This document shows positions 7,265-37,454 of a DNA stretch of 41,024 nucleotides, piece by piece. The position numbers and the translations under genes were made by a program. The notes under the pieces are model-generated. The model saw nothing but the letters and a program-made list of their open reading frames with translations. It did no database searches and had not been told where the DNA came from. How positions within the stretch are numbered: the first letter of the stretch is position 1; the number at the start of each line of letters is the position of its first letter. The DNA is from a virus. The DNA lies in UHGV virus genome UHGV-0070243; one strand, given 5' to 3'.

Positions 7265-7279
7265 TTACCTTTCAGGTAA
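7265..7279. promoter_or_regulatory. operator-like palindrome TTACCtttcaGGTAA
   Basis: perfect inverted repeat TTACC-N5-GGTAA; same 16-mer ATTACCTTTCAGGTAA recurs at 27563-27578. Confidence 0.6.
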
Positions 7280-7318
7280 TTTGCAAAACGTGCTGGATAG
7301 CAAACAAATTATTTGCTA

Positions 7319-7334
7319 CTGTATAAATATACAG
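7319..7334. promoter_or_regulatory. LexA (SOS) box CTGTATAAATATACAG
   Basis: matches CTGT-N8-ACAG with AT-rich centre (TACTGTATAAATATACAGTT); 8 nt upstream of ATG at 7342. Confidence 0.7.
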
Positions 7335-7341
7335 TTATTGC

Positions 7342-7614
7342 ATGGAGAAGATTAAGATGCAGCAGTATCACTATCCACTGGAAGACGGATTTACCGAAAG
7401 GATTCACACGCCGGGAGGCGTCAGGTCACTGGTGGAGGGATCGCACTTGATGAAATTACTCCGGGATCTCGATAAGGATGGATTTAATGTCGATGGCCCA
7501 CTTGCCGAACTGACTGCACTGATTAACTACGTCACCAGCTCGCAGATGTCTATGCAGGATCTGCAAACACATCTCGACTATTGTGCCGAACAATTACGAA
7601 AACAAACCAGATAA
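7342..7614 (+). CDS. stand-alone antirepressor C-terminal (ANT/KilA-C-like) domain protein (90 aa), probably SOS-inducible
   Basis: aligns by eye with the shared C-terminal domain of both antirepressors (PL..G...P.GV..L.E.S.LM.LL..L..DG..V.G..AELT...Y....D.QTH..Y); LexA box immediately upstream. Confidence 0.55.
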   Translation: MEKIKMQQYHYPLEDGFTERIHTPGGVRSLVEGSHLMKLLRDLDKDGFNVDGPLAELTALINYVTSSQMSMQDLQTHLDYCAEQLRKQTR

Positions 7615-7645
7615 GGTTTGAAATTACCAAATGGAGTGCTTATAT

Positions 7646-7660
7646 TTACCTTTGCGGTAA
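7646..7660. promoter_or_regulatory. operator-like palindrome TTACCtttgcGGTAA (extended ATTTACC...GGTAAAT)
   Basis: perfect TTACC-N5-GGTAA in the structured leader upstream of the Bro-N antirepressor. Confidence 0.6.
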
Positions 7661-7926
7661 ATTTACATCGCACTCCTCTTGTGCCATAGTAATCGGGCAC
7701 TGGCAAAATCCAGTGCCGGGATTGGCGTCCCGGGTTACTACAGAGGCACATATGCCGCATAAGCGGTTTTTTTATGTGTAAAGCGCACCTATTCTATGGT
7801 GGGCTGTGTGGGGGCACCGAAAGGTGCGCCGGGTCCTTTGTAGCCGGTTACGCCAACCCTGCACAGTTCACCACCAACCGATTGGCGTCGGTAGTGGTGA
7901 TTAACCTAACTACAAAGGTGATCACT

Positions 7927-8613
7927 ATGACTGCTAACGTAACCCCATCTGTTTTTCATTTTGAATCAGAAGCAACCATTCGAGCCATTGTTATTGATGG
8001 AAATCCTTGGTTTGTTGCCAAAGACGTTATTAAAGCTCTTCAACTGACAAACCCCACTATGTCAATAAAATCTCTTGATGATGATGAAAGGGCTAAATTT
8101 AACTTAGGCCGTCAAGGCGAAACCAATATTATCAACGAGTCAGGCCTCTACACACTGATCCTCCGCTGCCGCGACGCAGTGACACCAGGCACTATCCCCT
8201 ACCGCTTTCGTAAATGGGTTACAGGTGAGGTTCTTCCTCAGATCCGCCGCACCGGAAGTTACATTAAAAACTCGCTCCCGCAGGAAGAACGCATAAAGAT
8301 GGTTGCCGACCAGGTAGCCAACGCCACAGCATCAGCAGTGATGCAGGCAATGAAGATAGAGAACAAAACCTACAGTGCCCCGCTGAAGCCCGGCTACCGC
8401 AGTCTGATTCATTCGCCGTCGGGTGTTCTCGGCCTGACGGAGCACTCACTGCTGATGAATCTGCTGAACCAGTTACAGGAAGACGGGCATGACGTATCGG
8501 GCGCGGCGGCGGAGCTGACCACCATGTTCTGCTACATCGTCGGTGTGAGCAAATGCCTGCGTGATATCCAGACGCACGCGGAGTACATCAACGACAAGGC
8601 TGGGTTCTTCTGA
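7927..8613 (+). CDS. antirepressor, Bro-N domain + ANT/KilA-C C-terminal domain (228 aa)
   Basis: Bro-N signature FHFESEATIRAIVIDGNPWFVAKDVIKAL...ESGLYTLILRCRDA...RFRKWVTGEVLPQIRRTGSY; RBS AAGGTGA; ORF 7774..8613 trimmed to ATG 7927. Confidence 0.8.
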   Translation: MTANVTPSVFHFESEATIRAIVIDGNPWFVAKDVIKALQLTNPTMSIKSLDDDERAKFNLGRQGETNIINESGLYTLILRCRDAVTPGTIPYRFRKWVTGEVLPQIRRTGSYIKNSLPQEERIKMVADQVANATASAVMQAMKIENKTYSAPLKPGYRSLIHSPSGVLGLTEHSLLMNLLNQLQEDGHDVSGAAAELTTMFCYIVGVSKCLRDIQTHAEYINDKAGFF

Positions 8614-8638
8614 CGGGCGGCGGCACAGGGATGTGCTT
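8380..8638 (+). repeat. left arm of about 258-bp inverted repeat (about 93 percent identical to 10099..10356 on the other strand)
   Basis: encodes the near-identical last 78 aa of both antirepressors plus about 25 bp of 3' flank (shared GGCACAGGGATGTGC). Confidence 0.8.
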
Positions 8639-8679
8639 CTGACATAATCATTTGCGGTGTGATGTAGATTCACGTAAGA

Positions 8680-8694
8680 TTACCTTAAAGGTAA
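8680..8694. promoter_or_regulatory. operator-like palindrome TTACCttaaaGGTAA
   Basis: perfect TTACC-N5-GGTAA 26 nt upstream of the 8721 start. Confidence 0.6.
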
Positions 8695-8720
8695 ACCATG
8701 GGTTTACATGAGGAGGAGAT

Positions 8721-8930
8721 ATGGGATTTTGGTTCGCTCGTACAAAAACGAGGGATAATGCACCCAGCCCTCAGGCAAAAAATGCAGAAGTTCCGGCGTC
8801 AGCGCAGGTTAACAAGCGTGGTGGAGTATATATCTCATCACAGCAAATTTCTGAGCTTCCTGAGGTTAAGGAGATGCGTCGTCTCGCTGCTGCAATTGTT
8901 AAACAGGATCTTGCCACTGTAAGGAAATAG
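8721..8930 (+). CDS. hypothetical small soluble protein (69 aa), first gene of two-gene cargo operon
   Basis: strong SD GAGGAGGAG 4 nt before ATG; stop TAG overlaps GTG start of next gene by 1 nt; preferred over alternative-frame ORF 8698..8922. Confidence 0.5.
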   Translation: MGFWFARTKTRDNAPSPQAKNAEVPASAQVNKRGGVYISSQQISELPEVKEMRRLAAAIVKQDLATVRK

Positions 8931-10098: not shown

Positions 10099-10356
10099 TG
10101 CACATCCCTGTGCCTCCGTTCTGTCAGAAGAACCCTGCCTTGTCATTGATGTACTCTGCGTGAGTCTGGATATCACGCAGGCATTTGCTCACACCAACGA
10201 TGTAGCAGAACATGGTGGTCAGCTCCGCCGCCGCGCCCGATACGTCATGCCCGTCGTCCTGCAACTGATTCAGCAGATTCATCAGCAATGAGTTCTCCGT
10301 CAGGCCGAGAACACCAGACGGCGAGTGAATCAGGCTGCGGTAGCCGGGCTTCAGCG
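10099..10356 (-). repeat. right arm of about 258-bp inverted repeat (partner of 8380..8638)
   Basis: reverse complement of 8380..8638 matches with a handful of substitutions. Confidence 0.8.
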
Positions 10357-11068
10357 GATAACCATAACATTTTGTCTGTGTTTTAATTGCCTCACGAAGC
10401 GCATCTAACATCTTGACTGCCACTTCATCATTCTCTGATGCAGATCCAGCAGGGAGATACTCCCCTTCAAGCGGAACCCGAGCAACAAGAGACAACGCTT
10501 CGGCGAATTGATCTTCATCAATTTCTTTGTACGAACAGCCAAAATGAGATTTCAGTGACGACCACATGGTGATCATCGCCTTAGCCTGTTTTTCTTTTGG
10601 CAGAGACTGACCGCGACTCATGACGAGTTGTTTAATGGCTTCCTGCTGTTCAGTGGTTATTTTACCCGGCAACGCCTTTTTAGCTTTGCGTGGGTTAACC
10701 ACATGGCCTTTAGTCCAGTACTCGTAGAGCACATCGTCACACTCTTCCTGATACTGGATTACCTTGTCGCGGATTTCAGGACGGACTTTGTTAGGGCTGA
10801 TGGTTTGCAACCAGCCAGCAAGTTTGCGAAGTGCCAAACAAATAATCTCACGGCGCTGTTCATCCCCAGGAAGCTGCATTGTGATTTTCACAATGCAGGT
10901 TTTAAACCGCTGCTTCATTTTCGTAAACTGTGAAGCCCAATCCATACCCATTCCCTCAACGATAGGCTTCATTGGTGTGTACGGTTCGCCGTTGTGATTG
11001 ACAACATAAAGTTCTACGCCGTGGAATGGCACGTTGATAGTAGATACCGCTGTTGCTATACTCGTCAT
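10124..11068 (-). CDS. ant: antirepressor Ant-like (314 aa): Ant N-terminal domain + shared ANT/KilA-C C-terminal domain
   Basis: N-terminus VPFHGVELYVVNHNGEPYTPMKPIVEGMGMDW and KVRPEIRDKVIQYQEECDDVLYEYW recalled as P22 Ant-like; downstream of arc-like gene as in P22 immI. Confidence 0.7.
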   Translation of the reverse strand: MTSIATAVSTINVPFHGVELYVVNHNGEPYTPMKPIVEGMGMDWASQFTKMKQRFKTCIVKITMQLPGDEQRREIICLALRKLAGWLQTISPNKVRPEIRDKVIQYQEECDDVLYEYWTKGHVVNPRKAKKALPGKITTEQQEAIKQLVMSRGQSLPKEKQAKAMITMWSSLKSHFGCSYKEIDEDQFAEALSLVARVPLEGEYLPAGSASENDEVAVKMLDALREAIKTQTKCYGYPLKPGYRSLIHSPSGVLGLTENSLLMNLLNQLQDDGHDVSGAAAELTTMFCYIVGVSKCLRDIQTHAEYINDKAGFF

Positions 11069-11140: not shown

Positions 11141-11308
11141 TTATGCCACGCTATTCTTCTCACCAGTGAGTCCATACACTTTCCTCAGCTGATAGATAAT
11201 CTCTGTATTGAACTTTCGGCATTCTTTTTCGCCATTTCTTTCAATAGCTAACTTCACATCGTCCGGAAAACGAACTCGTCGTTGACACATCTCTTTTGCT
11301 TTTTGCAT
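11141..11308 (-). CDS. arc: Arc-like ribbon-helix-helix repressor (55 aa)
   Basis: MQKAKEMCQRRVRFPDDVKLAIERNGEKECRKFNTEIIYQLRKV resembles P22 Arc (beta-strand then NSEIYQR helix); RBS AAGGAG 9 nt upstream; ORF 11141..11344 trimmed. Confidence 0.65.
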   Translation of the reverse strand: MQKAKEMCQRRVRFPDDVKLAIERNGEKECRKFNTEIIYQLRKVYGLTGEKNSVA

Positions 11309-11428
11309 TTCATATCTCCTTAGCCCCACCGTGGGGCAAAACAATTGTCACACCGTGCGTCATTGATGTCAAGCACACGGTGAGGCATACTTCAATCATT
11401 GCAAGTAACTCAATATTTGGTGAAGAAC

Positions 11429-11860
11429 ATGAGCAGAGAAGATCCACAACTAAGGATCAGACTTCCCGTTGAAGTAAAAGAAAAAATAGAAATTTCTGCA
11501 AAAGCCAATAAGCGATCAATGAACGCTGAAATAGTACAACGTCTTGACACCAGCTTTCTGAAAGATATTCATGAAGATGACGTAATTTCTGCTTATGAAG
11601 CAAAAATTATTGCAAACAATGCACGGCATGAAATATCAAATATTATTTTCAAAAGAACCTTTAATGAAATTAATAAGAAAATAACACTTGGACATACAAG
11701 TTTTTATATAAACCTTAATGACCTTGAACTGGAATCACTTGCAGATAATGATTACCAGATCATCTTTGAAAAAACATTTAATAAGCTCAATGAACTAGGT
11801 TACATCATCTGTGAAAACTCATGGGATGCAGATGGTTTTGGAATTGAAATACCTGAATAG
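11429..11860 (+). CDS. mnt: Mnt-like ribbon-helix-helix repressor with about 60-aa C-terminal extension (143 aa)
   Basis: MSREDPQLRIRLPVEVKEKIEISAKANKRSMNAEIVQRL resembles P22 Mnt N-terminus (DDPHFNFRMPMEV...ANGRSMNSELLQIV); divergent from arc; AT-rich. Confidence 0.65.
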   Translation: MSREDPQLRIRLPVEVKEKIEISAKANKRSMNAEIVQRLDTSFLKDIHEDDVISAYEAKIIANNARHEISNIIFKRTFNEINKKITLGHTSFYINLNDLELESLADNDYQIIFEKTFNKLNELGYIICENSWDADGFGIEIPE

Positions 11861-12525: not shown

Positions 12526-15500
12526 TCACCGCATCACCGGATCCACCTGGTTTATTAGTGGCGCAATCCAGAACAGGTTATTGCCTGGTATCAGGGTTCG
12601 GACATTATGCACAATACGATCACCGGCATCACCATTCAACACTCCTGCGGTCACATCAATGATGCTATCCGCAAGACCAAATGACGGTCCGAATAGAGAT
12701 CCTACGAATCCACGACTGGCATACCTAGACTGTGTGCCAGTGCCAAATAAAGCCCCCAGCCCAACAGCACCACCAGTAGCCTTTTCAGCCATGTTGTTAT
12801 ATTCCATCAATGGCCCAAGAATACCGGATCTATCTATACCCTCAAGCACCAGCTTCTCTGGTGACCAGTCAACATTTTTCCCTTTCGATGCTTCTTTAAG
12901 CGCATAGACCAGTGAGCCAAGAGCAATCTGAAATGCAGTGCCATAATAAAATTGCGCAGTTCCTTCCTGTAGCCCACCAAGTAGCGCACGGTTGTATGAA
13001 GCCGTTGTGAATGATTTAAACTGAAATATCGTTCGCCCCATTGGAGTACTCGCCCATAAAGGTGTGTCACCAATACCGGGGGTGATGATAGTGTTATTAA
13101 CGTCTTTCAGAACCGCTGACTGGAATACTCCGGCAACGTACTGATCGTCCCATTTATCAAAGTTACCAATGTGCCATCCATCAATTACCTCACCATGTTT
13201 CTCGAACTCACTGCGAATACGCGCAGCCATATTGTCGTTGATACCGAGTTTTGCCATGCGACGTGCAGAAAACGCACCAGACAAAATACCGTCTGACGTG
13301 AGCATTCCGTTCATGGATTTGTTTATGTCATTAAATCGATCCATGAGTGTCAGCTTGCCGAAGGCATCAGTAATTCGCTCCATTCCTGCTTCGACTGCTG
13401 TTGTCCTGGAAGAACTGTCAACAAGATCACCAATTGCACGAGAACGTGAATGTAGTACAGTTTCCAATCCAATCCCCATCTTCAACATCTCTTCTTTGCT
13501 GGCCTTAAATGCCGGTGATTGGGATATCTGAGAAGCATAGCCTTTCATGGTGTTACGGAAACCATTAACCATAACCCCTCTGGCCAGATCTGGAATAGCT
13601 GATACTGTCATTCCACCGAGTTTGGTCGTGAAGTTCACATCCCGCAGAAAAGCGCCAGCACGAACAAAAAACGAAGACGGGTCATCAGGCATACCATATG
13701 TACCAACAAGACGATCGCGTAATGCTGTTATGTCTCTGAGATCATTTGCTCTTGATTTTGAAAGTCTGGACTGTTCTTTCCGTAATTCCTTTTCGTACTT
13801 TCGCATTAATGAATCGAGTTTACCCTGAGGAACAACTTCACCATTGCTCTCATAACGTGCTTTCAGATTTGCCACACTTTCGTCATATTTCGCCTTTATT
13901 TTTTCAGGCACTTCCCGTAACAGACTGTCATATTCGTCTTCAATTAATTGCAGACGCTCAGCCATAGTTCGTTTGCCAAATGTTCTCGTCAACTCAATTT
14001 CTGCTGCCGCTTCACGGATATGACGTTGCAGCACGTAATTCACATCACTTTCGAGATAATCCCTGATAAGACTATCAGGCACATTTAATGTTCTTTCTTT
14101 CGTACTACCTGCGGCTTTTACAGAAAATACGCTGACAAAATCCTGTGGAACCTTAGCACCAGTAATTTTATTAATTACGATATCCGCTGCAATTTCAGCA
14201 TCCTCAGGATCCAGTGTTTTATTGCCTCTCGACCACCAGTCAACCAAAATACGTCGAAATTTATCGCGTTCACTGATTATTTTTCCAACTTTATATATAC
14301 GTGGGAAATAGCTTGCCTGACCTAATGCTTTCAGTTCTTCATCTGGCGGCAATAAACCAAGCTTTTGCATTTCAACTTTCACCCGATTTAATACAGTTCG
14401 CATCGCCTGCGCCGTTTCCTGAACAACAGGATTAGCATGAACATCACCGCTTCGCATCGCATTCCCAACCTGCTGACGAAATGAATCAAAACTCATGTCA
14501 CCACCATCAGCTTTATACTTTGCGTATGCCTGTTTATTTCCGACAACAACTGCAGCTTCTTCACGCTGCCATCCACGTGTACGGGTTTCTACAGCTATCG
14601 GTGTTTCAATCCCCCTTTCATTTCCTTTAAGGGTGAAATTATTTTCGGCTAACTCCAGCGTTGTTTTTCGCACTGTCTTTGACGGAGACTCCATTAACCT
14701 TGTCAAAGGAGTAAGATAGCTCCCTGCTTTCCATGCAGCCTTTCCAACCACCCCACCAGAAACAGGGGTTAAATCATCCAGAGTCGCTGTATCAATTTTC
14801 ATAGCACCAACACTACCACCATCGGAAAGCGAAGCGGCAGCCCTGTCAGTCGCTGATGTAATGCTCATATTATCAAGAGCATCAGCAACCTCACGTGTGG
14901 CTGCAGCCCGGACGGATGGCGAAAGCGCAACACCAGCACTGGCAAACACGCCGCTCATCATCGCACCCGCTGCAACGTGAGCGGCACTTTCACCCCATGA
15001 GCGTGTTATTTGCTGATTATTCAGTACAACCTCGCTTAATGCAGTACCGGCAGCACCAATCGCAATCTGTGAGCCAATACGCGCCAGTGCCCCTCCTTGA
15101 GCACCGGGGATAAACATTGACGCAACAGTAACCGGATCCATTCCCGCAGCAATACTGGCAAGGGTTCCAACTACGCCAGCATCAGACAATAAACGTCTGT
15201 CTTCATTTTCATCATCTATCTGCTGCTTAATCCACGCCGTTTCCTCTGGCGATCGGGAATCTGCAAATTTCGCCCCCCAGTATTCATAACCGTGCAACTC
15301 ATTTTTATCAGCATATGGGTTATAACCTTCGACCGGTTCAAACTGTCTGGCTGGGCGGAAAAAACCAGCCAGAATATTGTTCTGTCGCATTGCAGCCCCC
15401 CATACGGAAGGCTCAGGTGGCAATGGCTCAGGATTAGCCCCTTCCGGAAGGGCAACATCAAACCCAGTTTGTTCCGGCAAAACATTACCTGACGGGATCA

Positions 15501-19296: not shown

Positions 19297-21767
19297 CAGA
19301 ATCCCCCAACAGTAAGGCGAGGAATAACGGCAAGAACAGACAGCGGCAACGGGTCAAGCTGACGGATTTTTACACGCCCGTTTTTGCCCCAGTTACTGTC
19401 CAGTTTCACTTCTACTTTTCCGGTAGCATCATCAACAGGATCATCGTAGAACTCGAATTCACGCTGTGGATATTCGTACCATTTACCGCCGGGCGTAGTC
19501 GCCCAGATGCCGCGACTGGCATTCACAACCAGAGTAACGGAGGGGATCACCTGTTTTTTGTCCAGCAGCGTTTCCTGTCCGTTAATGTTGATATCCAGTG
19601 TTTCGAATTCAGCAGTTATTGGCAGGCCGATGTGCACTACAGCCCCCGGAGATTCCAGCGTGACGGCACCTCCGGAAACCACTTTCTGTGGTTCCACGTT
19701 CGCATCAGAGAGAATGTTTACGGTCTGGCCTTCAAGATGAGACAGGCCTCCAAATGTCCGGCGCGCCATCTGCCAGTTCGTGGTGGCCACATTCCTGAGG
19801 GATGGCGGGACGTTCCTGTTAGCACGAACCACTACAGCGGTATTGCTGGTTACAGAAATAATGTCGCAACGTAATTCTTTTGACACTTCATCGCCAGTAT
19901 CAGGAGCAGTTCCGGTATAAGGGAACTGTAGTTGCGCACCGACATCACTACTGGTGAAGTACGCACCACCAGAAACACTGATTGTATATTCCGCGCGGTA
20001 ATCCCATTCGCCAGAACCACCAGTGATGGTCATCGTTCTGTCAGACGTATTTCTTCCATCATAGCTAAGGCCAGAATCAACAAAGAAAGCATCTTCATCG
20101 CTGGTAAATAAACGGCTGGACAGTCTCTCGATGTATCTCACTGTTTGCCCGTTAACGGTTCTGTTAACGACGAAATACACCGCATCTTCATTGCCTTCGC
20201 TGATACTGCATGTGCTTTCATATTTTCCGGTACTGGATTGTGGTGCCCATGCAAAAACCTGCTGATCACGCAAATAGGTCATCACCAGTAATTTACCGTC
20301 ATCACGAATGCAGAAGGCACTGGAGTAAGGGACAATCGAGAAGCACCAGTCAACAATGCTGTGCTTCTGAAAAAGATGATTGGCAAGGATAGTAAGGTCG
20401 TTCCCCTGATAGCCGTCAACATCGAATGAGTAGGCCAGATCACGGACAACACTGCCTTTCTCCTGGACGAACAGAGCAATATTCGCCACGGCAATTGGTG
20501 GGACATTGCTCGAGCCATTTGATCCCTGAGAGCTGAATGCAAATGATGATGGGGTTAACACTTTGTTCTGGTCGCCGGTGATGACGTACTCACCTCCGGA
20601 AGTCAGCGCCACCAGAGAACCAACATCAATCAGGTGGCGGATCTCATTAACCTGACGCCCGGCATAGGTGTAGATAATTCTGTCGTCATCCTGCGTAGGA
20701 TTGCTTTTGCCAAAATCCTTATAATCCCCGGTACGGCTGGCCCAGATAGTCTGAGGGAACGCAGTCGATGCGGCGAAGTAAAGACGCTGTTGATAATAAA
20801 CAACAGTGCCAGGATAACCATTAACACTGTTCCAGGCATATTTAGCCCATTTATAGCTGGCATTATCCTCGCCAACGACCTGCGAAGGGATATAGGAAAT
20901 CACCTCAGCAGTTGCAGTAGTGCCATTTACAGCAGTTATACTGGCAATGCCAAAACCACTGTGCAGATACTCCCACTCAATGCCAGTATCATCATCACCG
21001 GATCCGCCCCAGCCATCCCATGATGTGCCTTCTGTATGCGAAGGGCGCAAAGTACCTGTTTTGCCTGCTGTAACGGCGCGATAGTAGTTACTGTCTGCAC
21101 GGCGAATATCGCCAATCGACGTACTCTTACTGGTTTCCCATACCGGCACAGAATCCACTGCAGGCTGTTCCAGATAGAACAATTTGCCTACCTGCTCCGC
21201 GCCAAAAATAGAGGCGCTTGCCGTTAACGTAATTGTCCCGGTGCTGGCGCTGGCATAAACCGTCACTGACTCGTCAATATTGATATCTTCAAATGGCCCG
21301 TTCTTCGTTACCACATCAACCAGTTGCCAGTTGTCATGCGCATAGCGACGCAACTCTTTCGGCGGGTATGCCGGATGAACCAGCGTAAGCACGTCGGCGC
21401 TTTGCGTGAATTTAATTCGGAACAGATCGGCTTCAGTATATGGCGTGGCAATTTCATAAATAACATTGCTGCTGTTCAGCACCAACGCACCATCTTTGAT
21501 AACGCGCATGTACTGGTGTCCGAACTCCAGAGCATAGGTCTGAACCGTCGAGAACTGGAACGGGATCAGGCGGCATTTCCGATTTGGGTATTTGGCGGCA
21601 CCGACAAAACGCGTACCAGGTCGATTCTCAACGCCGCCATACTGCCGCACGATAAAGTTATCGCACTTGCGCAATGCCACCTGGTACTTCGCCATGTCAA
21701 TACGCCCGTACAACGACGGTCCAATCTCACCACCGGCAAAGCTGGGCTGGATCCAACTGATAGCCAT
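19296..21767 (-). CDS. tail tubular protein B / nozzle-like (823 aa)
   Basis: size and position match T7 gp12; N-terminal ISWIQPSFAGGEIGPSLYGRID resembles the gp12 N-terminal pattern (memory). Confidence 0.6.
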   Translation of the reverse strand: MAISWIQPSFAGGEIGPSLYGRIDMAKYQVALRKCDNFIVRQYGGVENRPGTRFVGAAKYPNRKCRLIPFQFSTVQTYALEFGHQYMRVIKDGALVLNSSNVIYEIATPYTEADLFRIKFTQSADVLTLVHPAYPPKELRRYAHDNWQLVDVVTKNGPFEDINIDESVTVYASASTGTITLTASASIFGAEQVGKLFYLEQPAVDSVPVWETSKSTSIGDIRRADSNYYRAVTAGKTGTLRPSHTEGTSWDGWGGSGDDDTGIEWEYLHSGFGIASITAVNGTTATAEVISYIPSQVVGEDNASYKWAKYAWNSVNGYPGTVVYYQQRLYFAASTAFPQTIWASRTGDYKDFGKSNPTQDDDRIIYTYAGRQVNEIRHLIDVGSLVALTSGGEYVITGDQNKVLTPSSFAFSSQGSNGSSNVPPIAVANIALFVQEKGSVVRDLAYSFDVDGYQGNDLTILANHLFQKHSIVDWCFSIVPYSSAFCIRDDGKLLVMTYLRDQQVFAWAPQSSTGKYESTCSISEGNEDAVYFVVNRTVNGQTVRYIERLSSRLFTSDEDAFFVDSGLSYDGRNTSDRTMTITGGSGEWDYRAEYTISVSGGAYFTSSDVGAQLQFPYTGTAPDTGDEVSKELRCDIISVTSNTAVVVRANRNVPPSLRNVATTNWQMARRTFGGLSHLEGQTVNILSDANVEPQKVVSGGAVTLESPGAVVHIGLPITAEFETLDININGQETLLDKKQVIPSVTLVVNASRGIWATTPGGKWYEYPQREFEFYDDPVDDATGKVEVKLDSNWGKNGRVKIRQLDPLPLSVLAVIPRLTVGGF

Positions 21768-27473: not shown

Positions 27474-27563
27474 ATCAATGACTCCGTACGCAATTAAATT
27501 ATTACCAATTTAACCACATATGATTTATTTATCGTAGATACTTGACATTTAACGCACTAATTA

Positions 27564-27578
27564 TTACCTTTCAGGTAA
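27564..27578. promoter_or_regulatory. operator-like palindrome TTACCtttcaGGTAA next to a TTGACA -35-like hexamer (27542-27547)
   Basis: perfect site; identical 16-mer to the 7264-7279 site. Confidence 0.6.
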
Positions 27579-27900
27579 GCAAAGAGTTCATTCCGGTTAT
27601 TAACCTGACTGGCTTGTCGTTAAATTGAACAGGTGGGGTGAGCTTTTATTTTGAGCAGTACGGTGTATGGCACATGCGCCGATAGCGGTCTGGATACGTT
27701 TAAGGGGCACCCTCCCTTGCTCGGGCAAACGAACCAGGTAGCCGGAATGTGCAAGTCGAGCGGTTTTATTCCGCGCACGGGGATTCACCATCCCGGCGAT
27801 TCGGTGTGACGCCTCGGAAGAGACGAGGGTACAACGATGAGAGCATTTATGGAGCCGCGACAAAGTGTGGCGCCTTAACAGGCTAAGTGCTCTCAGCGTT

Positions 27901-27977
27901 GTGGCATTAGCTCAGTTGGACAGAGCAACCGCCTTCTAAGCGGTTGGTCGCAGGTTCGAATACTGCATGCCACGCCA
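27901..27977 (+). tRNA. tRNA-Arg (anticodon UCU), 77 nt, with a G:A mismatch in the T-stem
   Basis: acceptor GTGGCAT/ATGCCAC, discriminator G, CCA encoded; D-arm GCTC/GAGC; anticodon stem ACCGC/GCGGT with loop CTTCTAA; T-arm GCAGG-TTCGAAT-ACTGC; overall very similar to E. coli argU (memory). Confidence 0.8.
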
Positions 27978-28164: not shown

Positions 28165-28180
28165 GCCTGATGACCACAAA

Positions 28181-28195
28181 TTACCTTAAAGGTAT
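28181..28195. promoter_or_regulatory. operator-like site TTACCttaaaGGTAt overlapping a TATAAT hexamer (28193-28198)
   Basis: one mismatch in right arm; directly upstream of the moron start codon. Confidence 0.5.
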
Positions 28196-28199
28196 AATC

Positions 28200-29048
28200 A
28201 TGAAAAACTTTAAGGTAATTAGTATGTTCGAATCGTTCAAAGAGCTGTTTTCATCTACTGCCAATACTGCCGTGCATCGAGCTAAAAACCCTGTGCTTGG
28301 TGCTTTTGTTATGTCCTGGTGCGCCTTCAACTGGAAATCACTTCTTTATCTATTTTTTAGCAAATCAAATATAATAGATAAAATTTCATACATCTCAGAT
28401 AACAGCACATGGAAAACTGTTATGTTTTATCCATGCTTATCTGTAATTACTATCTGCTGCCTATTACCATGGGTAAACAATATCATTAACGTATGGCAAG
28501 CAAAGCCTCTTGATAATAATGACTCAATCGAAAACCACCGGAAGGCAAGAAAAATACAACGTGAAACACGGCTACAGAGATTGCTGGCTAAAAAAGACAT
28601 TACTTACGAAAAAGTAAAAACAGGCGCTGAAAAAAACATTCAAGACATGAAAGAGGAAATAATTCTTTCAAAAGACAGAATGGGACAACTCACATCTGAA
28701 TTGAAAGAGAGGGAGACAGAACTGCGCGCAGCACAAGCTCGTATTTTAGAATTATCTAAGGTTATTGATGAAACAACATCTAAACTAGAAAATCTAGAAA
28801 AAACTCACAAAAATTTAAAAAACGAATATGAGTCCTATAAGAAAAACATTCCTTTGGCAACAAATAATACAATTGCTAATGGGCTTGTAGGTCTAAAATC
28901 ATTACAAGACTTTAATGAGTCCGTAAAGAAACTTGGCGTTACTGGAATTAACAATCCAGAAATCAGTACATTATTGAATAATCCTCTAGTAAATATAAAT
29001 GGTGATTTAAATTCCACCTATCAAAGAAAATCAAAAACACAAAAGTAA
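28200..29048 (+). CDS. hypothetical membrane-anchored coiled-coil protein (282 aa); moron on the strand opposite the structural genes
   Basis: two N-terminal hydrophobic helices then long heptad-like charged region (ELKERETELRAAQARILELSKVIDETTSKLENLEKTHKNLKNEYESYKK); AT-rich; alternative start ATG 28224 with RBS AAGGTAA. Confidence 0.6.
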   Translation: MKNFKVISMFESFKELFSSTANTAVHRAKNPVLGAFVMSWCAFNWKSLLYLFFSKSNIIDKISYISDNSTWKTVMFYPCLSVITICCLLPWVNNIINVWQAKPLDNNDSIENHRKARKIQRETRLQRLLAKKDITYEKVKTGAEKNIQDMKEEIILSKDRMGQLTSELKERETELRAAQARILELSKVIDETTSKLENLEKTHKNLKNEYESYKKNIPLATNNTIANGLVGLKSLQDFNESVKKLGVTGINNPEISTLLNNPLVNINGDLNSTYQRKSKTQK

Positions 29049-29051
29049 AAA

Positions 29052-30521
29052 TCATTCAAATGGGTCATAGTCTGTTATAGCCCTGCCCTGCTGCTGCCGT
29101 GGGTCATTAGTTTTCTTGGCTACCGGGAACGCAAACGTCAGCAGTAGCGCATCGCCTTTACCAGGAGAACGCCCAAGCCGCTCCTTGATATCTTCCTTCG
29201 GTTCGATAACGATTTTACCGTCCACTCGAACTTTGTACTCTGCCGCCGACAGGTCGTCCGCTGTTTCCTGGTCATCAAGCATGCCGCCCAGCCTCAGCCA
29301 TGTCTTGCATGAGTTGAACATCTCCCCACGCTTGTTGAGCATCTGCGGGTCAGTAGACGCACCACCAAACGGAACAAGTTGCCATGTACGACCCCAGCCG
29401 TCACCGATTGACTTCAGACCAGTTCCGTAACCGAAGTCGATGAACACTGCGTCAGCCTGGTACTGGTCTTCAAAGTCAGCGATACGCTTCGCCATTATCA
29501 GATCGTCAGTGGTCTTGTTGCCAGTCCACAGCACCTTACTGTGTAGCCCCTGCCGCAGGTATATCACAGCGTCATCAACGCCGGAGTATGCCGGGTCAAC
29601 GCCGATTATCACCGGAGCATGTGCAACCTGCGCAGCGGTTACCACCCGTTTCATTGCCTCGTCAGTAAGACCGGTAGGGATAAACTGCAATTCAGATGCA
29701 TCAGGGAATATGCCACGCACACGGATTTTAACGAAGTCGCTGTCTTCCCCGTAGTCATCAACCCATTTCTGCAACTGCTGTTTGTTGGTACCTTCCACCG
29801 TCCGACTGTCAATCTGCGCAGTTTTCCAGCGGTGTTTATACTTGCGGAAACATTCACGGAAACGTCCGGTATTACGCGTCGGGTTTCCGAACGCCACCCA
29901 GATAATCTCAGTGTCTTCGTCCGTAAGCGCACCCTCAGCAACTTCCCACACCAGATCCGCAATGTTCGACGCTTCATCGAATACCACGATGATGCGTTTG
30001 CGCTCGTTGTGTAGTCCGGCGAATGCCTCAGTGTTGTGCTCAGACCAGGGGATTGCGTCAGCTCGCCACCGCTTGTCGTGCCCAGGATCATTGCTGTACA
30101 TCGCAGTAGCGGTACAGGTAAACCAGTCTTTCGTGATAGCAAGGTTCGACCACTTGATAATTTCCGGCCAGGTCTTCGTTCGTAGCTGGTTGTCGGTGTT
30201 GGCGGTCACCACGACCTTACAATCCTCGCAAGTGGACATGCCCCAGTTGATCAGCATTGAGATGAATGCGGATTTACCAATACCGTGACCAGAAGCGCGT
30301 GCCAGCATAAGCGGCTGATAGCGCGTCTCTGGATTCTGCAGGTGATCACGTATCTCTCGGAACGCATCGGCCTGCCACTGACGTGGACCGGTGGCATGTG
30401 CCAGTTCAGTACCCTCTTCCCCCCACGGGAACGCATAGAGGGCATAGCCAAGCGGATCGTGAGTGAACCCTGCAATATCCTCGATCAACTGCTCTTCAGG
30501 AGATAACGCTGTATCTGTCAC
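29052..30521 (-). CDS. terminase large subunit (489 aa)
   Basis: Walker A SGHGIGKS and Walker B-like IIVVFDEAS; C-terminal nuclease-like region; overlaps terS by 4 nt. Confidence 0.85.
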   Translation of the reverse strand: MTDTALSPEEQLIEDIAGFTHDPLGYALYAFPWGEEGTELAHATGPRQWQADAFREIRDHLQNPETRYQPLMLARASGHGIGKSAFISMLINWGMSTCEDCKVVVTANTDNQLRTKTWPEIIKWSNLAITKDWFTCTATAMYSNDPGHDKRWRADAIPWSEHNTEAFAGLHNERKRIIVVFDEASNIADLVWEVAEGALTDEDTEIIWVAFGNPTRNTGRFRECFRKYKHRWKTAQIDSRTVEGTNKQQLQKWVDDYGEDSDFVKIRVRGIFPDASELQFIPTGLTDEAMKRVVTAAQVAHAPVIIGVDPAYSGVDDAVIYLRQGLHSKVLWTGNKTTDDLIMAKRIADFEDQYQADAVFIDFGYGTGLKSIGDGWGRTWQLVPFGGASTDPQMLNKRGEMFNSCKTWLRLGGMLDDQETADDLSAAEYKVRVDGKIVIEPKEDIKERLGRSPGKGDALLLTFAFPVAKKTNDPRQQQGRAITDYDPFE

Positions 30522-31114
30522 TGATTACCATCCTGACGTTCTTTGAGTCGCTTCCTGGCTGCTGCTATGCGATCAGCAATTGTCACATTCACATTAACAT
30601 CCAGACGTTCTTTGAACGCGTTGACATCAACATGCTTACCAATCAGCTCAAGGTTCTTCACCTTGTCAGGCCATTTAATTTTTTTGAGGATTGTCTCTAT
30701 CGAATCCTCGTTCATGTTCATGATGGTCGATGACAGATCAAAGCCACTAAGCGTAGTGCGCCAGATTTTCGGCCACTCACGGATTGGTTTAAGGCTCCCA
30801 TCGTCGTTGAGGATGTCGATCACGTCCATCTGGTCGATCTCCACCAGGCGCATGAGAACGTAATCAGCACTGACGCGCATTCGTTTGTTGCGCTCCTCCA
30901 TCAACTCGGCAATCCGTTTTTGAATGCGTTCATCGCGCATCATGACACTAGCTTTAACTGCCGCTGTATTTGGGGAGAATCCTGCGTTAATCGCTGCCTG
31001 AGTCTGGTTTTCAGGCGTTTTGATGTATGACTGGCAATAAGCCTCCTGCATTGCTGTTAGTGGCTTAAATTGCGTTGATTTGCGTTTATAGGTTTTAGGT
31101 TCAGCAGGCATCAT
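30518..31114 (-). CDS. terminase small subunit (about 198 aa)
   Basis: position immediately upstream of and overlapping terL; basic helical protein; ORF 30518..31192 trimmed because a terminator hairpin lies inside its 5' extension. Confidence 0.6.
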   Translation of the reverse strand: MMPAEPKTYKRKSTQFKPLTAMQEAYCQSYIKTPENQTQAAINAGFSPNTAAVKASVMMRDERIQKRIAELMEERNKRMRVSADYVLMRLVEIDQMDVIDILNDDGSLKPIREWPKIWRTTLSGFDLSSTIMNMNEDSIETILKKIKWPDKVKNLELIGKHVDVNAFKERLDVNVNVTIADRIAAARKRLKERQDGNQ

Positions 31115-31154
31115 AACCACCGTGGTAATAGTTACCGTTGTGGTAATAGTACCA

Positions 31155-31183
31155 TGCAAAATAAAGCCGCCATAGTTGGCGGC
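31155..31183 (-). terminator. rho-independent terminator between nin-like genes and terS
   Basis: GCCGCC-aactat-GGCGGC on the minus strand followed by TTTATTTTG. Confidence 0.6.
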
Positions 31184-31232
31184 AGTATTCAAACCCCATC
31201 AAATTCATCATGCATAATCTACTCGTGACATG

Positions 31233-31499
31233 TCACACTATTAATTTCGTTTCATGCCAGCCTTTAGTCACCCAGCATTGCGAGTCACCATTACACGGGC
31301 ATGAATTAACTGGAACTCTCTCGCCGCACTTACCGCAACATTTTCTGCTGATCGATTTTATACGCCCGCGCACGCGTGCATCATCCTGGCGGATCAGTAA
31401 CGCTATATACTCACCGAAGTCTGGCACTGGATATACACCTTCCGTACACTGGCGGCAGTCACAATAGAGATGCATTGTGTAACTTGCGGCAATAGCCAT
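31233..31499 (-). CDS. Cys-rich small protein (88 aa), probable zinc-binding; function unknown
   Basis: CDC..C and CCGKC...CPC clusters; last early-operon gene before the terminator and terS. Confidence 0.45.
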   Translation of the reverse strand: MAIAASYTMHLYCDCRQCTEGVYPVPDFGEYIALLIRQDDARVRGRIKSISRKCCGKCGERVPVNSCPCNGDSQCWVTKGWHETKLIV

Positions 31500-33250: not shown

Positions 33251-33849
33251 TGGTTGCCTCCTTTGCGAAGCTGGGCAGCAAAGTCAACTAACCACTCAGT
33301 CATTTCAACCTTCCCTACCAGGTCTGAACCAGGGTGCATACAGCAATCACTCTGCGCCGCTTTGAAATCCTTATACTCATATTCTTGGGCCACCAGATTT
33401 TTTGCAGCTTCTATAGCAGCATCCACGCCCTGCGCCCGCACTTCAGCCAGGAAAGCATCGGTGGCTGGCATATTTCCTGTTGCCTTCATGGCCTCCAAAA
33501 TAACCAGAACGCCATCTCGCCCAACCACCTCAGCGATAACCTCGGTGTTGTCGCCAACAACATCGCAGAATGCCTGAACTGCCTTACGAGCCAGCTCATT
33601 CTCCGCCGCCAGCACCGAAAACTTCTCGTGCGCCAACTTAACAGCCGAATCAGCCTGCTTAATTGACTCAGTCGCTCTCTGGTGGTCTTCGGCCAGCGCA
33701 TTAGCACGCACCAGTTGCACTTCCAGTTGCGTTGCCAAATCGCTGATCAGCTTTGCCACACTGCGCATATCAACGGCACCACATTCTGCTTTCAGTTCCG
33801 AAGCCATCTCATGCCCGGCGGCAACTAACACTTTGATATTACTTTCCAT
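33247..33849 (-). CDS. hypothetical nin-region protein (200 aa)
   Basis: helical, Ala-rich; overlaps downstream gene by 4 nt. Confidence 0.45.
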   Translation of the reverse strand: MESNIKVLVAAGHEMASELKAECGAVDMRSVAKLISDLATQLEVQLVRANALAEDHQRATESIKQADSAVKLAHEKFSVLAAENELARKAVQAFCDVVGDNTEVIAEVVGRDGVLVILEAMKATGNMPATDAFLAEVRAQGVDAAIEAAKNLVAQEYEYKDFKAAQSDCCMHPGSDLVGKVEMTEWLVDFAAQLRKGGNQ

Positions 33850-34276: not shown

Positions 34277-34279
34277 GAT

Positions 34280-34294
34280 TTACCTCTAAGGTAA
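34280..34294. promoter_or_regulatory. operator-like palindrome TTACCtctaaGGTAA
   Basis: perfect site 4 nt upstream of the 34276 start codon. Confidence 0.6.
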
Positions 34295-34341
34295 TTAAAA
34301 ACCACATAAGACACGAAATCAATAGAGCTTAGAATATTTTG

Positions 34342-34356
34342 TTACCTTATAGGTAA
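34342..34356. promoter_or_regulatory. operator-like palindrome TTACCttataGGTAA
   Basis: perfect site, 62 bp from the previous one in the same intergenic region. Confidence 0.6.
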
Positions 34357-34393
34357 TTATTGAGGCGTAAAAAAATGCGCTATCGCGCTGGTA

Positions 34394-35176: not shown

Positions 35177-35984
35177 CCCACACCTCATCTATCCAGTCAG
35201 TGTTATGCCAGTCAAGGCTCTTTCTGACTTCACCTGATTTCTGTCTACAGAACTGGATGCGCCTTGCCAGCTTCTGCTCCCACTGTGCCTGATGGTATGC
35301 CTTACCCTCAGCCATCCAGTAAATTCTGAACTCTGCAAGTTCCTGTGCCGTTGGCAGACTGTCCAGGTAGATTCCCTGCAATGAGCTTTTCCGAAGAAAG
35401 TCATCTGATGGCTGCCATTGTTCATGCATGACAAATTTACCTAATTGCCCTGGCCCACCAGGAGGAACAAAGTTATTCATCACGGCGTTGTTTGCGCCGG
35501 GGTCATGAGGAACAGAATCCCCGGTTTTTGTCCTGCTCTCCCTCTCTTGGTTAAATGACTGGTTATATGACTGGTTCTGGATCCCGTTTTTGGGATCATT
35601 CAACATCCCGTTTTTGGGATCATTCAACATCCCGTTTTTGGGTATATTCCCGTTTTCGGTAACATTACCGTTTTCGGGTTCATTGCCCCCCTCCCGGTTG
35701 CCTTTAATGTTCCCGTTTTTGGTTATATTAAGAGAGAAAACCCGCACTCTTTTTGTCGCTCCCTTTCTCTCTCCGGTATCTGAAATAAGCCCCATTTTCA
35801 TGAGCGATATAAGCCCGGCCTGCACGGTTTTTTTATTCAGGCAAGTGTCTTTAACGAGGCGTTCTATGCTGGGGTAGCAGAGGTTATATTCATCGGCTCT
35901 GTCAGCCATCGAGAGCAGTATGAGCTTTAATGATGAGCTACCTGGATCTGTCTCCCAGGCCCAATCTGTTGCATGTCTGCTCAT
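35151..35984 (-). CDS. replication initiator (O-like position): N-terminal DNA-binding region, iteron-encoded Asn/Gly/Pro repeat linker, DnaT-like C-terminal domain
   Basis: C-terminus GKFVMHEQWQPSDDF...ELAEFRIYWMAEGKAYHQAQWEQKLARRIQ resembles E. coli DnaT (memory); GGAG RBS; contains iterons. Confidence 0.7.
   Translation of the reverse strand: MSRHATDWAWETDPGSSSLKLILLSMADRADEYNLCYPSIERLVKDTCLNKKTVQAGLISLMKMGLISDTGERKGATKRVRVFSLNITKNGNIKGNREGGNEPENGNVTENGNIPKNGMLNDPKNGMLNDPKNGIQNQSYNQSFNQERESRTKTGDSVPHDPGANNAVMNNFVPPGGPGQLGKFVMHEQWQPSDDFLRKSSLQGIYLDSLPTAQELAEFRIYWMAEGKAYHQAQWEQKLARRIQFCRQKSGEVRKSLDWHNTDWIDEVWDEINSRTS
35581..35730. repeat. iteron array (candidate replication origin) inside the O-like gene
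   Basis: two perfect 24-bp tandem repeats ATCCCGTTTTTGGGATCATTCAAC (35581-35604, 35605-35628) then four degenerate CCCGTTTT(T/C)GG units, followed by AT-rich DNA. Confidence 0.7.
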
Positions 35985-35999
35985 GATTAATCTCCGCTA

Positions 36000-36200
36000 T
36001 CAGCTTGAGTGTTGTGGGGAGGAATTAATCATGATCTGCTTAATCTCTGCCCTGATGCGACGGTTTGATTCCATGGTGCACTCAACACAGTGTCCGTTGT
36101 AAACCCAGCGTTCACTGTCATGTCCGTGCTTACATGGTTTTCCGGTGTAGTAGCGTTTAAGTCCGCGCTTTGCGGCATCAATACGTGTAATGATTTCCAT
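36000..36200 (-). CDS. small Cys/His-rich protein (66 aa) in the cII-like position
   Basis: internal ATG at 36200; CKHGH...CVEC zinc-finger-like spacing; ORF-track start 36263 is TTG and overlaps the operator site. Confidence 0.4.
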   Translation of the reverse strand: MEIITRIDAAKRGLKRYYTGKPCKHGHDSERWVYNGHCVECTMESNRRIRAEIKQIMINSSPQHSS

Positions 36201-36280
36201 GGTAAGCCCTGTTATTAGTATTGGGATTACGGTTATTTTGTGCTGACACAAAAAAAAGATCAACCAGATTTGGTTTTTTA

Positions 36281-36295
36281 TTACCTTTGAGGTAC
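36281..36295. promoter_or_regulatory. operator-like site TTACCtttgaGGTAc between the cro terminator and the next gene
   Basis: one mismatch in right arm. Confidence 0.5.
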
Positions 36296-36300
36296 GAATA

Positions 36301-36328
36301 GATATGAAAAGACCGCCGGGTGGCGGTC
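36301..36328 (-). terminator. rho-independent terminator directly after the cro-like gene (tR1-like)
   Basis: GACCGCC-accc-GGCGGTC on the minus strand followed by TTTTCATATC. Confidence 0.65.
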
Positions 36329-36350
36329 TACAGAGGGTTGTGGCTGGATA

Positions 36351-36581
36351 TCATGAGTAGAAGAAGTATGCCAGTTCTGCTTTTGAGCGCAGCCATTGTC
36401 TTGTTTTACAGGCTTTAAAAAGCCCATTCATCAATACTTTACCTGGCATTTTTCGCTTACCTGTTAAGTGAGTCTGGATATAGTGACTCGTCGTTCCGGC
36501 TTCCTGTGCGAAGGCTTCACGCTCATCCGGAGTAAGTGCAAGCCAGTGCTTTTTGAAATCGAAATGTCCGTTATCGCTCAT
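36351..36581 (-). CDS. Cro-like HTH regulator (76 aa)
   Basis: HTH-like segment AFAQEAGTTSHYIQTHLTGKRKMP; first gene transcribed leftward from the divergent operator region. Confidence 0.55.
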   Translation of the reverse strand: MSDNGHFDFKKHWLALTPDEREAFAQEAGTTSHYIQTHLTGKRKMPGKVLMNGLFKACKTRQWLRSKAELAYFFYS

Positions 36582-36617
36582 AGCTATTGCCTGATATTTA
36601 TTTCAGATAATAAATAT

Positions 36618-36680
36618 TCACCCATAAGGTAACAAAAATCAAGGATAGTTACCTATGAGGTGCATTTACCTGTTGGGTAA
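36618..36680. promoter_or_regulatory. OR-like tripartite operator between divergent cro-like and repressor genes
   Basis: three sites: TcACCcataaGGTAA (36618-36632), TTACCtatgaGGTgc (36649-36663), TTACCtgttgGGTAA (36666-36680). Confidence 0.65.
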
Positions 36681-36735
36681 TATTGCTTTAAATTGAATCA
36701 TCTACTGATTCATATATGAGGCGATTTTCCAGAAA

Positions 36736-37320
36736 ATGAAAAGTATCCAGGACGTCCGCAGGCAAAATCTCAACGACTTGATCGACCGTGAATTCAATGG
36801 TGTTCAGACGCGGATGGCAGAAAAACTTGGAACTCAGGCAAATCTGGTAAACCGCTGGGCTCTTGGCAAGAAGGTTATCGGCGACCAGGTTGCGCGAAAA
36901 ATTGAAGCTGCCGCCAATAAACCCCGTAACTGGCTTGATATCGATCGCTCGCTTTCTCAGGAAGGTTTTCAGCCTGTCGGCCCAAGCGACATTGGTCAGC
37001 TGGCGGCTCACAACCTGGAACGCTGGATGAGCGAAAGCCGCGACCTTTCAACACAGGGAAAACTTCACCGCGCATCCGGCGTCGCCCAGGTGACAATCAG
37101 CCGCCTGTTAAACAATGAGGTCAGCGTTTCCATTTCCACCCTGGAGAATGTTGCATCCGCATTCGGGCGTCACGGCTATGAATTACTGATTCACCCGCAC
37201 GACCCTGCGACTATCAACTATGACCGCTCGCGCTACGCATTGTTACCCGAAACAGAGAAGGCAAAGATCGAAAGTTACATTGAATTTGTCATCAGCCAGA
37301 ACGAAAAAAACAAACAATAA
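36736..37320 (+). CDS. tandem-HTH (two XRE-type domains) repressor-like protein (194 aa), no S24 peptidase domain
   Basis: two HTH segments (GVQTRMAEKLGTQANLVNRWALGKK and HRASGVAQVTISRLLNNEV); cI-like position between OR-like and OL-like operator clusters; own terminator. Confidence 0.6.
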   Translation: MKSIQDVRRQNLNDLIDREFNGVQTRMAEKLGTQANLVNRWALGKKVIGDQVARKIEAAANKPRNWLDIDRSLSQEGFQPVGPSDIGQLAAHNLERWMSESRDLSTQGKLHRASGVAQVTISRLLNNEVSVSISTLENVASAFGRHGYELLIHPHDPATINYDRSRYALLPETEKAKIESYIEFVISQNEKNKQ

Positions 37321-37340
37321 AATCATATTTTTCAGTAAGT

Positions 37341-37367
37341 AAGCCGCCTCATGGCGGCTTTTTTATT
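37341..37367 (+). terminator. rho-independent terminator after repressor gene
   Basis: AAGCCGCC-tcat-GGCGGCTT + TTTTATT. Confidence 0.75.
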
Positions 37368-37377
37368 GCCAGCAAGA

Positions 37378-37454
37378 TTACCTTATGGGTAATTTTTTTA
37401 ACTCATATCTATTGACATCAAACCAGATACGCATAATCATTACCTCAACGGTAA
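37378..37454. promoter_or_regulatory. OL-like operator pair flanking a PL-like promoter
   Basis: TTACCttatgGGTAA (37378-37392), TTGACA at 37412-37417, TTACCtcaacGGTAA (37440-37454), extra half-site GGTAAC at 37463-37468. Confidence 0.6.

Follow-up and report, generated by a model that had tools for sequence, protein, structure and literature searches.

Which protein reads the palindrome TTACC-N5-GGTAA that recurs between the genes of the virus genome UHGV-0070243, and which genes does it hold in check? The stretch of DNA analysed here, 41,024 nucleotides in length and called the window throughout, is 95–98% identical over long stretches to the Escherichia phages phiV10, TL-2011b, PAS61 and ZX5 and their relatives in the genus Uetakevirus, and judging by this similarity it is a phiV10/TL-2011b-like Uetakevirus prophage. 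Our results strongly suggest that 15 copies of the palindrome, in its full form A-TTACC-N5-GGTAA-T, are operators of Rep, the master repressor of the prophage. We put the probability of this reading at about 85%. A preliminary description of the window had proposed that a single phage DNA-binding protein would control the immunity switch together with a set of dispersed genes. This proposal appears well supported by the homology of Rep, by the syntenic placement of the motif in related phages and by the annotation of Salmonella phage epsilon15.

The palindrome and the repressor Rep

An exact scan of the window returned 10 perfect copies of TTACC-N5-GGTAA, where dinucleotide shuffles gave an expectation of 0.04 ± 0.20, and 14 sites with up to one mismatch against 0.83 expected. 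The preliminary description had listed nine perfect and four imperfect sites, with a chance expectation of about 0.04 per window. All 13 of these sites were recovered at their coordinates and the shuffles gave the same expectation, but the list had missed two copies, the perfect site 31132 and the one-mismatch site 31114, which lie in tandem before the small-terminase gene terS. What had been described as an outward variant at 31126 is merely the junction of these two abutting sites. The fifteenth credible site, 36649, has two mismatches, and it is credible only because it abuts the perfect site 36666 and because a perfect site occupies its place in epsilon15, SPC32H and the Klebsiella phages, including BUCT711.

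According to a curated gene list, non-coding DNA makes up 7.3% of the prophage part of the window. This small fraction holds all 15 credible sites, in line with the earlier statement that every copy is intergenic, and the naive probability of such placement for the 14 sites with up to one mismatch is about 1e-16. Outside the prophage, no operator copies were found in ~1.8 kb of the window and in the guaA/guaB flank of one sister lysogen. A scan of IMG/VR for ATTACCTNNNAGGTAAT yielded, among the matches listed, mostly single copies on unrelated contigs and some multi-site clusters, and full-text literature searching for the motif string returned nothing relevant. The 38 perfect sites of four genomes gave the symmetrised consensus A-TTACC-WWWWW-GGTAA-T, with A or T at the central base in 74 of 76 half-counts.

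Two further matches were set aside. The lone perfect copy with a 3-bp spacer, TTACC-N3-GGTAA at 28464–28476, had been put forward as a variant of the motif; it lies within the coding region of orf282 and probably arose by chance. The same probably holds for a two-mismatch match at 36457, a single copy inside the cro-like gene.

The candidate for the protein that binds these sites is encoded in the immunity region. Over its full length, Rep is homologous to the Repressor of Salmonella phage SPC32H (PDB 5D50 chain A; phmmer E=4e-42, residues 1–190). Its Pfam matches are to HTH families only, with HTH_3 at residues 106–147, and the Pfam scan found no peptidase S24 domain. The lack of this domain sets Rep apart from a lambda-type CI and is consistent with induction by antirepression. 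SPC32H Rep has an N-terminal DNA-binding domain, a middle HTH-like domain for dimerisation and a C-terminal domain for tetramerisation and Ant binding (PMC9986798), and it is reported to bind palindromic sites as a tetramer (PMC9638917; PMC9986798). The earlier label of a tandem-HTH repressor is misleading, because in SPC32H the second HTH-like domain is described as a dimerisation domain and only the N-terminal one as the DNA-binding domain. The recognition helix of the N-terminal domain, ANLVNRW, is invariant in five clades whose repressors are overall about 42–78% identical, and the middle and C-terminal domains diverge from those of SPC32H Rep.

Experimental work on a near-identical protein comes from phage ZX5. 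Overexpression of the ZX5 repressor, which is stated to be identical to that of phiV10, abolished free phage, blocked lytic growth and lowered endolysin and holin transcripts by more than 99.9% (PMC9782041). The phiV10/ZX5 repressor is 99.5% identical to Rep of the window (tblastn). The window also encodes the partner of Rep, a small antirepressor Ant that matches the SPC32H anti-repressor 5d50_E (phmmer E=4e-47 over 83 aligned residues) and is preceded by a LexA box. The true start of ant is the second ATG, at 7357, rather than that at 7342.

The motif and its positions are shared widely. The epsilon15 RefSeq record (NC_004775.2 / GenBank AY150271) carries seven features annotated as 'protein_bind / repressor / lysogeny', each of them ATTACC-N5-GGTAAT: before terS (12–27), before the gp3 operon (2931–2947), between ant (gp19) and the tail fibre gene (19895–19911), three at PL and one in the nin region. 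The record leaves the OR sites and a second nin site unmarked, though they are present in its sequence. With up to one mismatch, we counted 18 sites in SPC32H (0.48 expected), 15 in Tyrion (0.75 expected) and 13 in the Klebsiella phage BUCT711 (0.42 expected); perfect copies alone numbered 8 in phiV10, 10 in TL-2011b and 11 in epsilon15. Syntenic positions across these six phages comprise terS, gp3, ant/tail fibre, the PL pair, OR, the post-cro site, the nin pair and int, as well as the lysis genes in the relatives. The same 17-bp palindrome stands at the same positions in relatives from E. coli, Enterobacter, Klebsiella and Salmonella. Prophages from six further species, belonging to Superficieibacter, Erwinia, Klebsiella, Citrobacter and Scandinavium, likewise carry it around rep.

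In the distant homologues from Paraburkholderia, Hydrogenovibrio and Thiomicrospira, whose similarity to Rep is confined to the N-terminal domain, perfect copies of the motif were absent, and a search for inverted repeats around four of them gave no operator-like palindrome. The two distant homologues that were translated have recognition helices other than ANLVNRW. The absence of the motif from these homologues is weakly consistent with the assignment of the sites to Rep.

Dispersed Rep operators that are released by a LexA-controlled antirepressor are already known for the genus from epsilon15 and SPC32H. Since these two are the closest relatives of the present system, most of the novelty claimed for it falls away. 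The epsilon15 repressor-site annotation is said to be linked to a study by Kropinski et al. 2007, and Kim & Ryu 2013 and Kim et al. 2016 reportedly dealt with the Rep–Ant switch of SPC32H. The window and epsilon15 have in common the 17-bp palindrome, its orthologous positions and operator pairs 62 bp apart. Their Rep proteins are ~43% identical overall but have the same recognition helix. The differences concern individual sites: epsilon15 has three sites at PL where the window has two, and a site before the lysis genes that the window lacks, whereas the window has additional sites at 7646, 8680 and 28181 before lineage-specific genes. With SPC32H (PDB 5D50, 5D4Z), the window shares a full-length Rep homologue, a close Ant, the LexA box before ant and operators at the same places; it differs in the diverged middle and C-terminal domains of Rep and in carrying, in addition, a Bro-N gene and a P22-type arc/ant module. 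The window therefore appears to hold an epsilon15-like Rep operator regulon, of which every feature that can be read from sequence was found except the site at the lysis promoter.

Layout of the probable operators at early, late and accessory promoters

The operators are listed in Table 1. At the PL, PR, nin, Bro-N, tRNA-Arg and orf282 promoters, and at the int promoter of relatives, they overlap with the -35 hexamer, the spacer or the -10/+1 region. Others precede the late-type promoters of the structural operon and the tail fibre, or stand directly before terS. The preliminary description had recognised an OR-like triplet, an OL-like pair and sites before ant, the Bro-N gene, the cargo genes, the tRNA, orf282, the DUF1064 gene of the nin region and the post-cro gene, and in all these respects its account stands.

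Table 1. Coordinates in the window of the probable Rep operators and of the genes, promoters and other elements discussed with them. Operators are named by the position used in the text.
Feature	Position	Strand	Description
Operator 7265	7264..7280		perfect; divergent ant/tail-fibre region
Operator 7646	7645..7661		perfect; overlaps -10 end of Bro-N promoter
Operator 8680	8679..8695		perfect; before cargo genes orf74 and orf288; ATG 2 nt after
Operator 27564	27563..27579		perfect; between structural (gp3-like) operon and tRNA-Arg
Operator 28181	28180..28196		one mismatch; in spacer of ATGACC-17-TATAAT, before orf282
Operator 31114 (terS-proximal)	31113..31129		one mismatch; overlaps ribosome-binding site; terS ATG 31111 next
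Operator 31132 (terS-proximal)	31131..31147		perfect; directly after terminator; abutting tandem with 31114
Operator 34280 (nin-region O1)	34279..34295		perfect; right half is Shine-Dalgarno; DUF1064 gene ATG 2 nt on
nin-region promoter	34294..34322	-	TTGATT-17-TTTAAT; geometry as PL
Operator 34342 (nin-region O2)	34341..34357		perfect; upstream operator
Operator 36281	36280..36296		one mismatch; after cro terminator
Operator 36618 (OR)	36617..36633		one mismatch; overlaps PR -35 hexamer and spacer
PR, cro-side promoter			TTGTTA-17-TATTAT; minus strand
Operator 36649 (OR)	36648..36664		degenerate, two mismatches; abuts next site at 17-bp spacing
Operator 36666 (OR)	36665..36681		perfect; nearest rep
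Operator 37378 (OL2)	37377..37393		perfect; upstream operator of PL; ends 18 nt before -35
PL promoter	37412..37440	+	TTGACA-17-AATCAT; toward early-left genes (recE/recT side)
Operator 37440 (OL1)	37439..37455		perfect; overlaps last 2 bp of -10 and transcription start; 62 bp from OL2, centre to centre
rep, master repressor	36736..37320	+	194 aa; phmmer match to SPC32H Repressor 5d50_A
cro-position gene	36351..36581	-	76 aa; divergent from rep; HTH-like segment AGTTSHYIQTHLTG
ant, small antirepressor	7357..7614	+	phmmer match to 5d50_E
LexA box CTGTATAAATATACAG	7319..7334		before ant; perfect; read from sequence; conserved in all clades
Second box copies	3795-3805, 7225-7235, 27512-27522, 34300-34310, 37421-37431	-
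Second box copies	7198-7208, 7605-7618, 36262-36275	+
P22-type arc/ant module	10124-11068, 11141-11344	-
P22-type arc/ant module	11399-11860	+

Two early promoters, PL and the nin promoter, share one design, in which O2, 18 nt, the -35 hexamer, 17 nt and the -10 hexamer follow one another, and O1 begins with the final two bases of the -10. The centres of O2 and O1 are 62 bp apart at both promoters in every clade (63 bp at PL of the Klebsiella phages), a spacing that fits the reported tetramer of Rep. Alignments of the two promoters from five clades showed invariant half-sites, -35 hexamers and spacings amid diverged flanks, and the whole geometry of PL is likewise invariant. The three OR sites have spacings of 31 and 17 bp. 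Beyond the cro-position gene lies the operator at 36281, which is conserved in phiV10, Tyrion and BUCT711; 16 nt separate its end from a TTGATC-17-CAAAAT promoter downstream that serves the p42-like and replication genes. No convincing promoter for rep itself (PRM) was recognised, as there was no match at the threshold of the promoter scan.

Further inverted repeats were noted in the immunity region, at 36594–36617 and 36695–36711. The former, ATATTTATT-N6-AATAAATAT, spans the -10 of the cro-side promoter and is kept in Tyrion but not in epsilon15; the latter, GAATCA-N5-TGATTC, lies between OR and the start of rep.

Operators also accompany genes far from the immunity region. The left half of the operator at 27564 forms the -10 of a promoter, TACCTT, 17 nt after a -35 (TTGACA) that is conserved in the four genomes compared, and this promoter (27542–27570) points to tRNA-Arg (27901–27977). 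The geometry makes the earlier remark on a tRNA leader reasonable. Seen from the opposite strand, this operator precedes the late-type promoter of gp3. At 28181 (promoter 28170–28198), the spacer is taken up by the operator, whose right end provides the -10 (GGTATAAT), a layout that recurs before int in relatives; the product of orf282, the gene that follows, has two hydrophobic N-terminal segments and a coiled coil. The Bro-N promoter (7618–7646, TTGAAA-17-TATATT), which precedes the Bro-N gene at 7774–8613, has an O1 arrangement as at PL and nin. Before the cargo genes, the site at 8680 is accompanied by a weak promoter only (TTGCGG-17-TAAGAT), and TL-2011b has the same site at 33333. In the operators at 8680, 28181, 34280 and 31114, the right half-site also serves as the ribosome-binding site, with a start codon within 1–3 nt.

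Whether the tandem pair is intergenic depends on where terS begins. In the phiV10 annotation, terS is a longer TTG-initiated open reading frame of 224 aa (window 30518–31192; phiV10 record 41–715) that includes both operators. In TL-2011b, epsilon15 and Tyrion, it is annotated from the ATG corresponding to 31111, and in SPC32H the start also comes after the operators. Most likely, terS of the window starts at 31111 with 198 aa. Both operators lie upstream of this start and are therefore intergenic.

How could one repressor serve all these sites? Most likely, two N-terminal HTH domains of Rep together bind each palindrome. Since Rep is reported to be tetrameric, one tetramer could hold two operators at once, either abutting ones (17–18 bp apart, as at OR and terS) or two at a distance of 62 bp, the promoter between them forming a loop, as at PL and the nin promoter. 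For the structurally related Rco of pLS20, a loop of 75 bp has been described (PMC9986798), comparable in scale to the 62-bp spacing in the window. In a lysogen, hardly any transcription unit other than rep would escape silencing by Rep; early-left, early-right, nin, replication, accessory, tRNA and late units would be shut off. Where operators overlap a ribosome-binding site, and at the tandem pair of terS, bound Rep could block elongation. Induction would follow the scheme of SPC32H: DNA damage would remove LexA from the box before ant, Ant would be made, and Ant would strip Rep from all operators at once.

Several phage systems resemble this arrangement in part. Like lambda, the window has divergent repressor and cro-position genes with three operators between them and a second cluster at the early-left promoter, and its oligomeric repressor is likely to bind cooperatively or with looping. 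Unlike lambda, it has a repressor without the S24 autocleavage domain, two OL sites that flank the promoter 62 bp apart instead of three adjacent ones, and about ten further dispersed operator places, including late, tRNA and accessory genes. The preliminary description had compared the layout with the operators of P1 C1 and the stoperators of mycobacteriophage L5. In P1, one repressor acts on many operators scattered over the genome that control unlinked genes, and there is an antirepressor as well, as in the window. However, the operators of P1 are asymmetric 17-mers, and the monomeric protein that binds them is not known to be related to Rep, though no search for homology to C1 was made, whereas the site in the window is a perfect palindrome and Rep matches HTH_3 and SPC32H Rep. 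The stoperators of L5, bound by gp71, are asymmetric 13-mers that act in one orientation. They share with the window the many intergenic copies of a repressor site, some of them inside transcription units; in contrast, the sites in the window are symmetric and for the most part lie on or beside promoter hexamers, with only the terS pair lacking a promoter. Symmetric and mostly promoter-associated sites thus speak against a P1 C1 or L5 stoperator system. Both remain fair functional analogies for the dispersed layout, and the closest relatives are epsilon15 and SPC32H.

Rival readings and a second conserved box

Several observations weigh against the assignment of all sites to Rep as a repressor of transcription. 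No sigma-70 promoter was evident at the terS operator pair, which leaves nothing recognisable to repress there, and at 8680 and 27564 the match to a promoter is weak. The operators that lie only upstream of their promoter (7265, 36281 and, with respect to gp3, 27564) leave the core promoter unoccluded. No Rep operator is found before the lysis cassette of the window, where phiV10, epsilon15, SPC32H and Tyrion have one ~35 nt upstream. Looping over 62 bp is suggested by the spacing of the operators alone. Finally, the 76-aa cro-position protein is highly conserved, being 58–84% identical across clades with an invariant HTH-like segment and a match to phrog_35 'transcriptional repressor', and could bind the same sites.

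This last point leads to an alternative explanation, in which the palindrome mainly serves another conserved regulator, either the cro-position protein or a Cys-rich regulator encoded before terS, while Rep binds only the OR/OL subset or acts elsewhere. In lambda-type switches, Cro and CI do share operators; such sharing, however, is compatible with a Rep regulon as well. We consider the alternative improbable, given that the annotators of epsilon15 assigned the sites to the repressor, that a secondary source describes SPC32H Rep as binding palindromic sites (PMC9638917), and that a second conserved palindrome, AACCA-N4-TGGTT / CATATNNGGTT, is on offer as a candidate site for a second regulator. 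A different explanation places the function of the motif in RNA, with a UUACCU...AGGUAA hairpin that sequesters its Shine-Dalgarno-like right arm and so controls translation of the gene 2–3 nt downstream. At the four sites where the right half-site lies within 1–3 nt of an ATG, it is indeed the sole Shine-Dalgarno-like sequence, and hairpins of -3 to -5 kcal/mol are predicted. These hairpins are weak, though, and many copies stand upstream of a -35 or in promoter spacers, positions that transcription in the direction concerned does not cover. Decisive for us is that the arms never covary: among the 38 perfect sites compared, both arms were unchanging and compensatory changes were not found, which is the signature of protein–DNA recognition and not of structure. 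We therefore reject this explanation as very unlikely, although a hairpin might be a by-product at a few of the sites.

It might also be asked whether the repeats are chiefly boundaries for recombination and cargo exchange, without a regulatory role at the accessory genes, as the sites 7646, 8680 and 28181 flank lineage-specific cargo that differs among phiV10, TL-2011b and the window. Yet 17 bp is short for homologous exchange, and the copies at accessory genes keep the precise promoter geometry of the core sites. A role as boundary would add to regulation by Rep instead of replacing it, and as an explanation in its own right it has very little probability. Hence, we retain Rep as the protein that most likely binds the palindrome.

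The second conserved box, CATATNNGGTT (palindromic form AACCATATATGGTT, AACCA-N4-TGGTT; also written CATATGTGGTT), adjoins Rep operators and is always intergenic. The window, phiV10, epsilon15, Tyrion and SPC32H have 4–7 copies of CATATNNGGTT per genome against about 0.2–0.35 expected, and the Klebsiella phage BUCT711 has one perfect copy only. The box is unannotated in the phage records compared. Places common to phiV10, epsilon15, SPC32H and Tyrion are the spacers of the PL and nin promoters and the -35 of the replication-gene and Bro-N promoters. Further shared places lie exactly 7 nt before the -10 of three late-type promoters, those of gp3, the tail fibre and lysis. In the promoter region of the lysis cassette (3735–3960), the CATATATGGTT box is kept. 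Possibly, the box is the site of a second regulator that may act in the early-to-late switch.

A small Cys-rich protein is encoded directly before terS (31233–31499, minus strand), with the pattern CDCRQC...CCGKCG...CPC. It matches phrog_536 'transcriptional regulator' and gave no match in Pfam. In phiV10, TL-2011b, epsilon15 and Tyrion, the gene at this place before terS likewise encodes a protein annotated as 'transcriptional regulator'. The Cys-rich protein of the window is a candidate late-gene activator.

Tentatively, these observations might be combined into two operator codes for the Uetakeviruses, a proposal that we regard as conceivable but doubtful. Rep would act on ATTACC-N5-GGTAAT, and the cro-position protein or the Cys-rich protein would act on AACCATATATGGTT / CATATNNGGTT. 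The second regulator would turn early promoters off, because its box occupies their spacers or -35 hexamers, and would turn on the three late promoters, which have no -35, because the box precedes their -10 by 7 nt. Such activation of late promoters would resemble that by p4 of phi29. The Rep sites at terS would, in this scheme, be elongation roadblocks.

Prophage context and meaning for the family

The published attachment core ATTGAGTGGGAATGATT (PMC9782041) occurs once in the window, at 1818–1834, and bases 1–1817 therefore lie outside the prophage. The prophage extends from 1818 beyond the right end of the window, with its integrase gene outside, and its orientation is opposite to that of the phiV10 record. 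A sister lysogen, E. coli 04-00955, carries its prophage next to guaA and has an additional one-mismatch operator 42 bp before int (13713–13727 of its record). The immunity region (36250–37480) was found at an identity of at least 95% in 541 of 5,426 complete E. coli genomes, and this is hence a very common prophage family.

Some other features of the prophage deserve mention. There is a second antirepressor module, with a P22-type Ant (phrog_524/245), an Arc-like gene and a second Arc-like gene, and no Rep operator was found in front of it. Within the DnaT-like replication gene, iteron-like tandem repeats at 35548–35684 (a 24-bp unit repeated 2.6 times at 100% identity, an 18-bp unit repeated 3.1 times and a 12-bp unit repeated 2.4 times) are probably the phage origin. 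The genes for O-antigen modification that phiV10, epsilon15, SPC32H and Tyrion carry between the tail-fibre gene and the lysis cassette, an O-acetyltransferase gene in the case of phiV10, are missing in this window.

Our finding carries an existing annotation over to the E. coli lineage and does not introduce a new mechanism. Among the members of this prophage family are O-antigen-modifying phages and reporter phages such as phiV10, and the operator map offers a clean set of predicted Rep-controlled promoters for engineering. For the biology of the lysogen, the map would tell which genes are silent, and in the window these would include tRNA-Arg and accessory genes annotated without a function.

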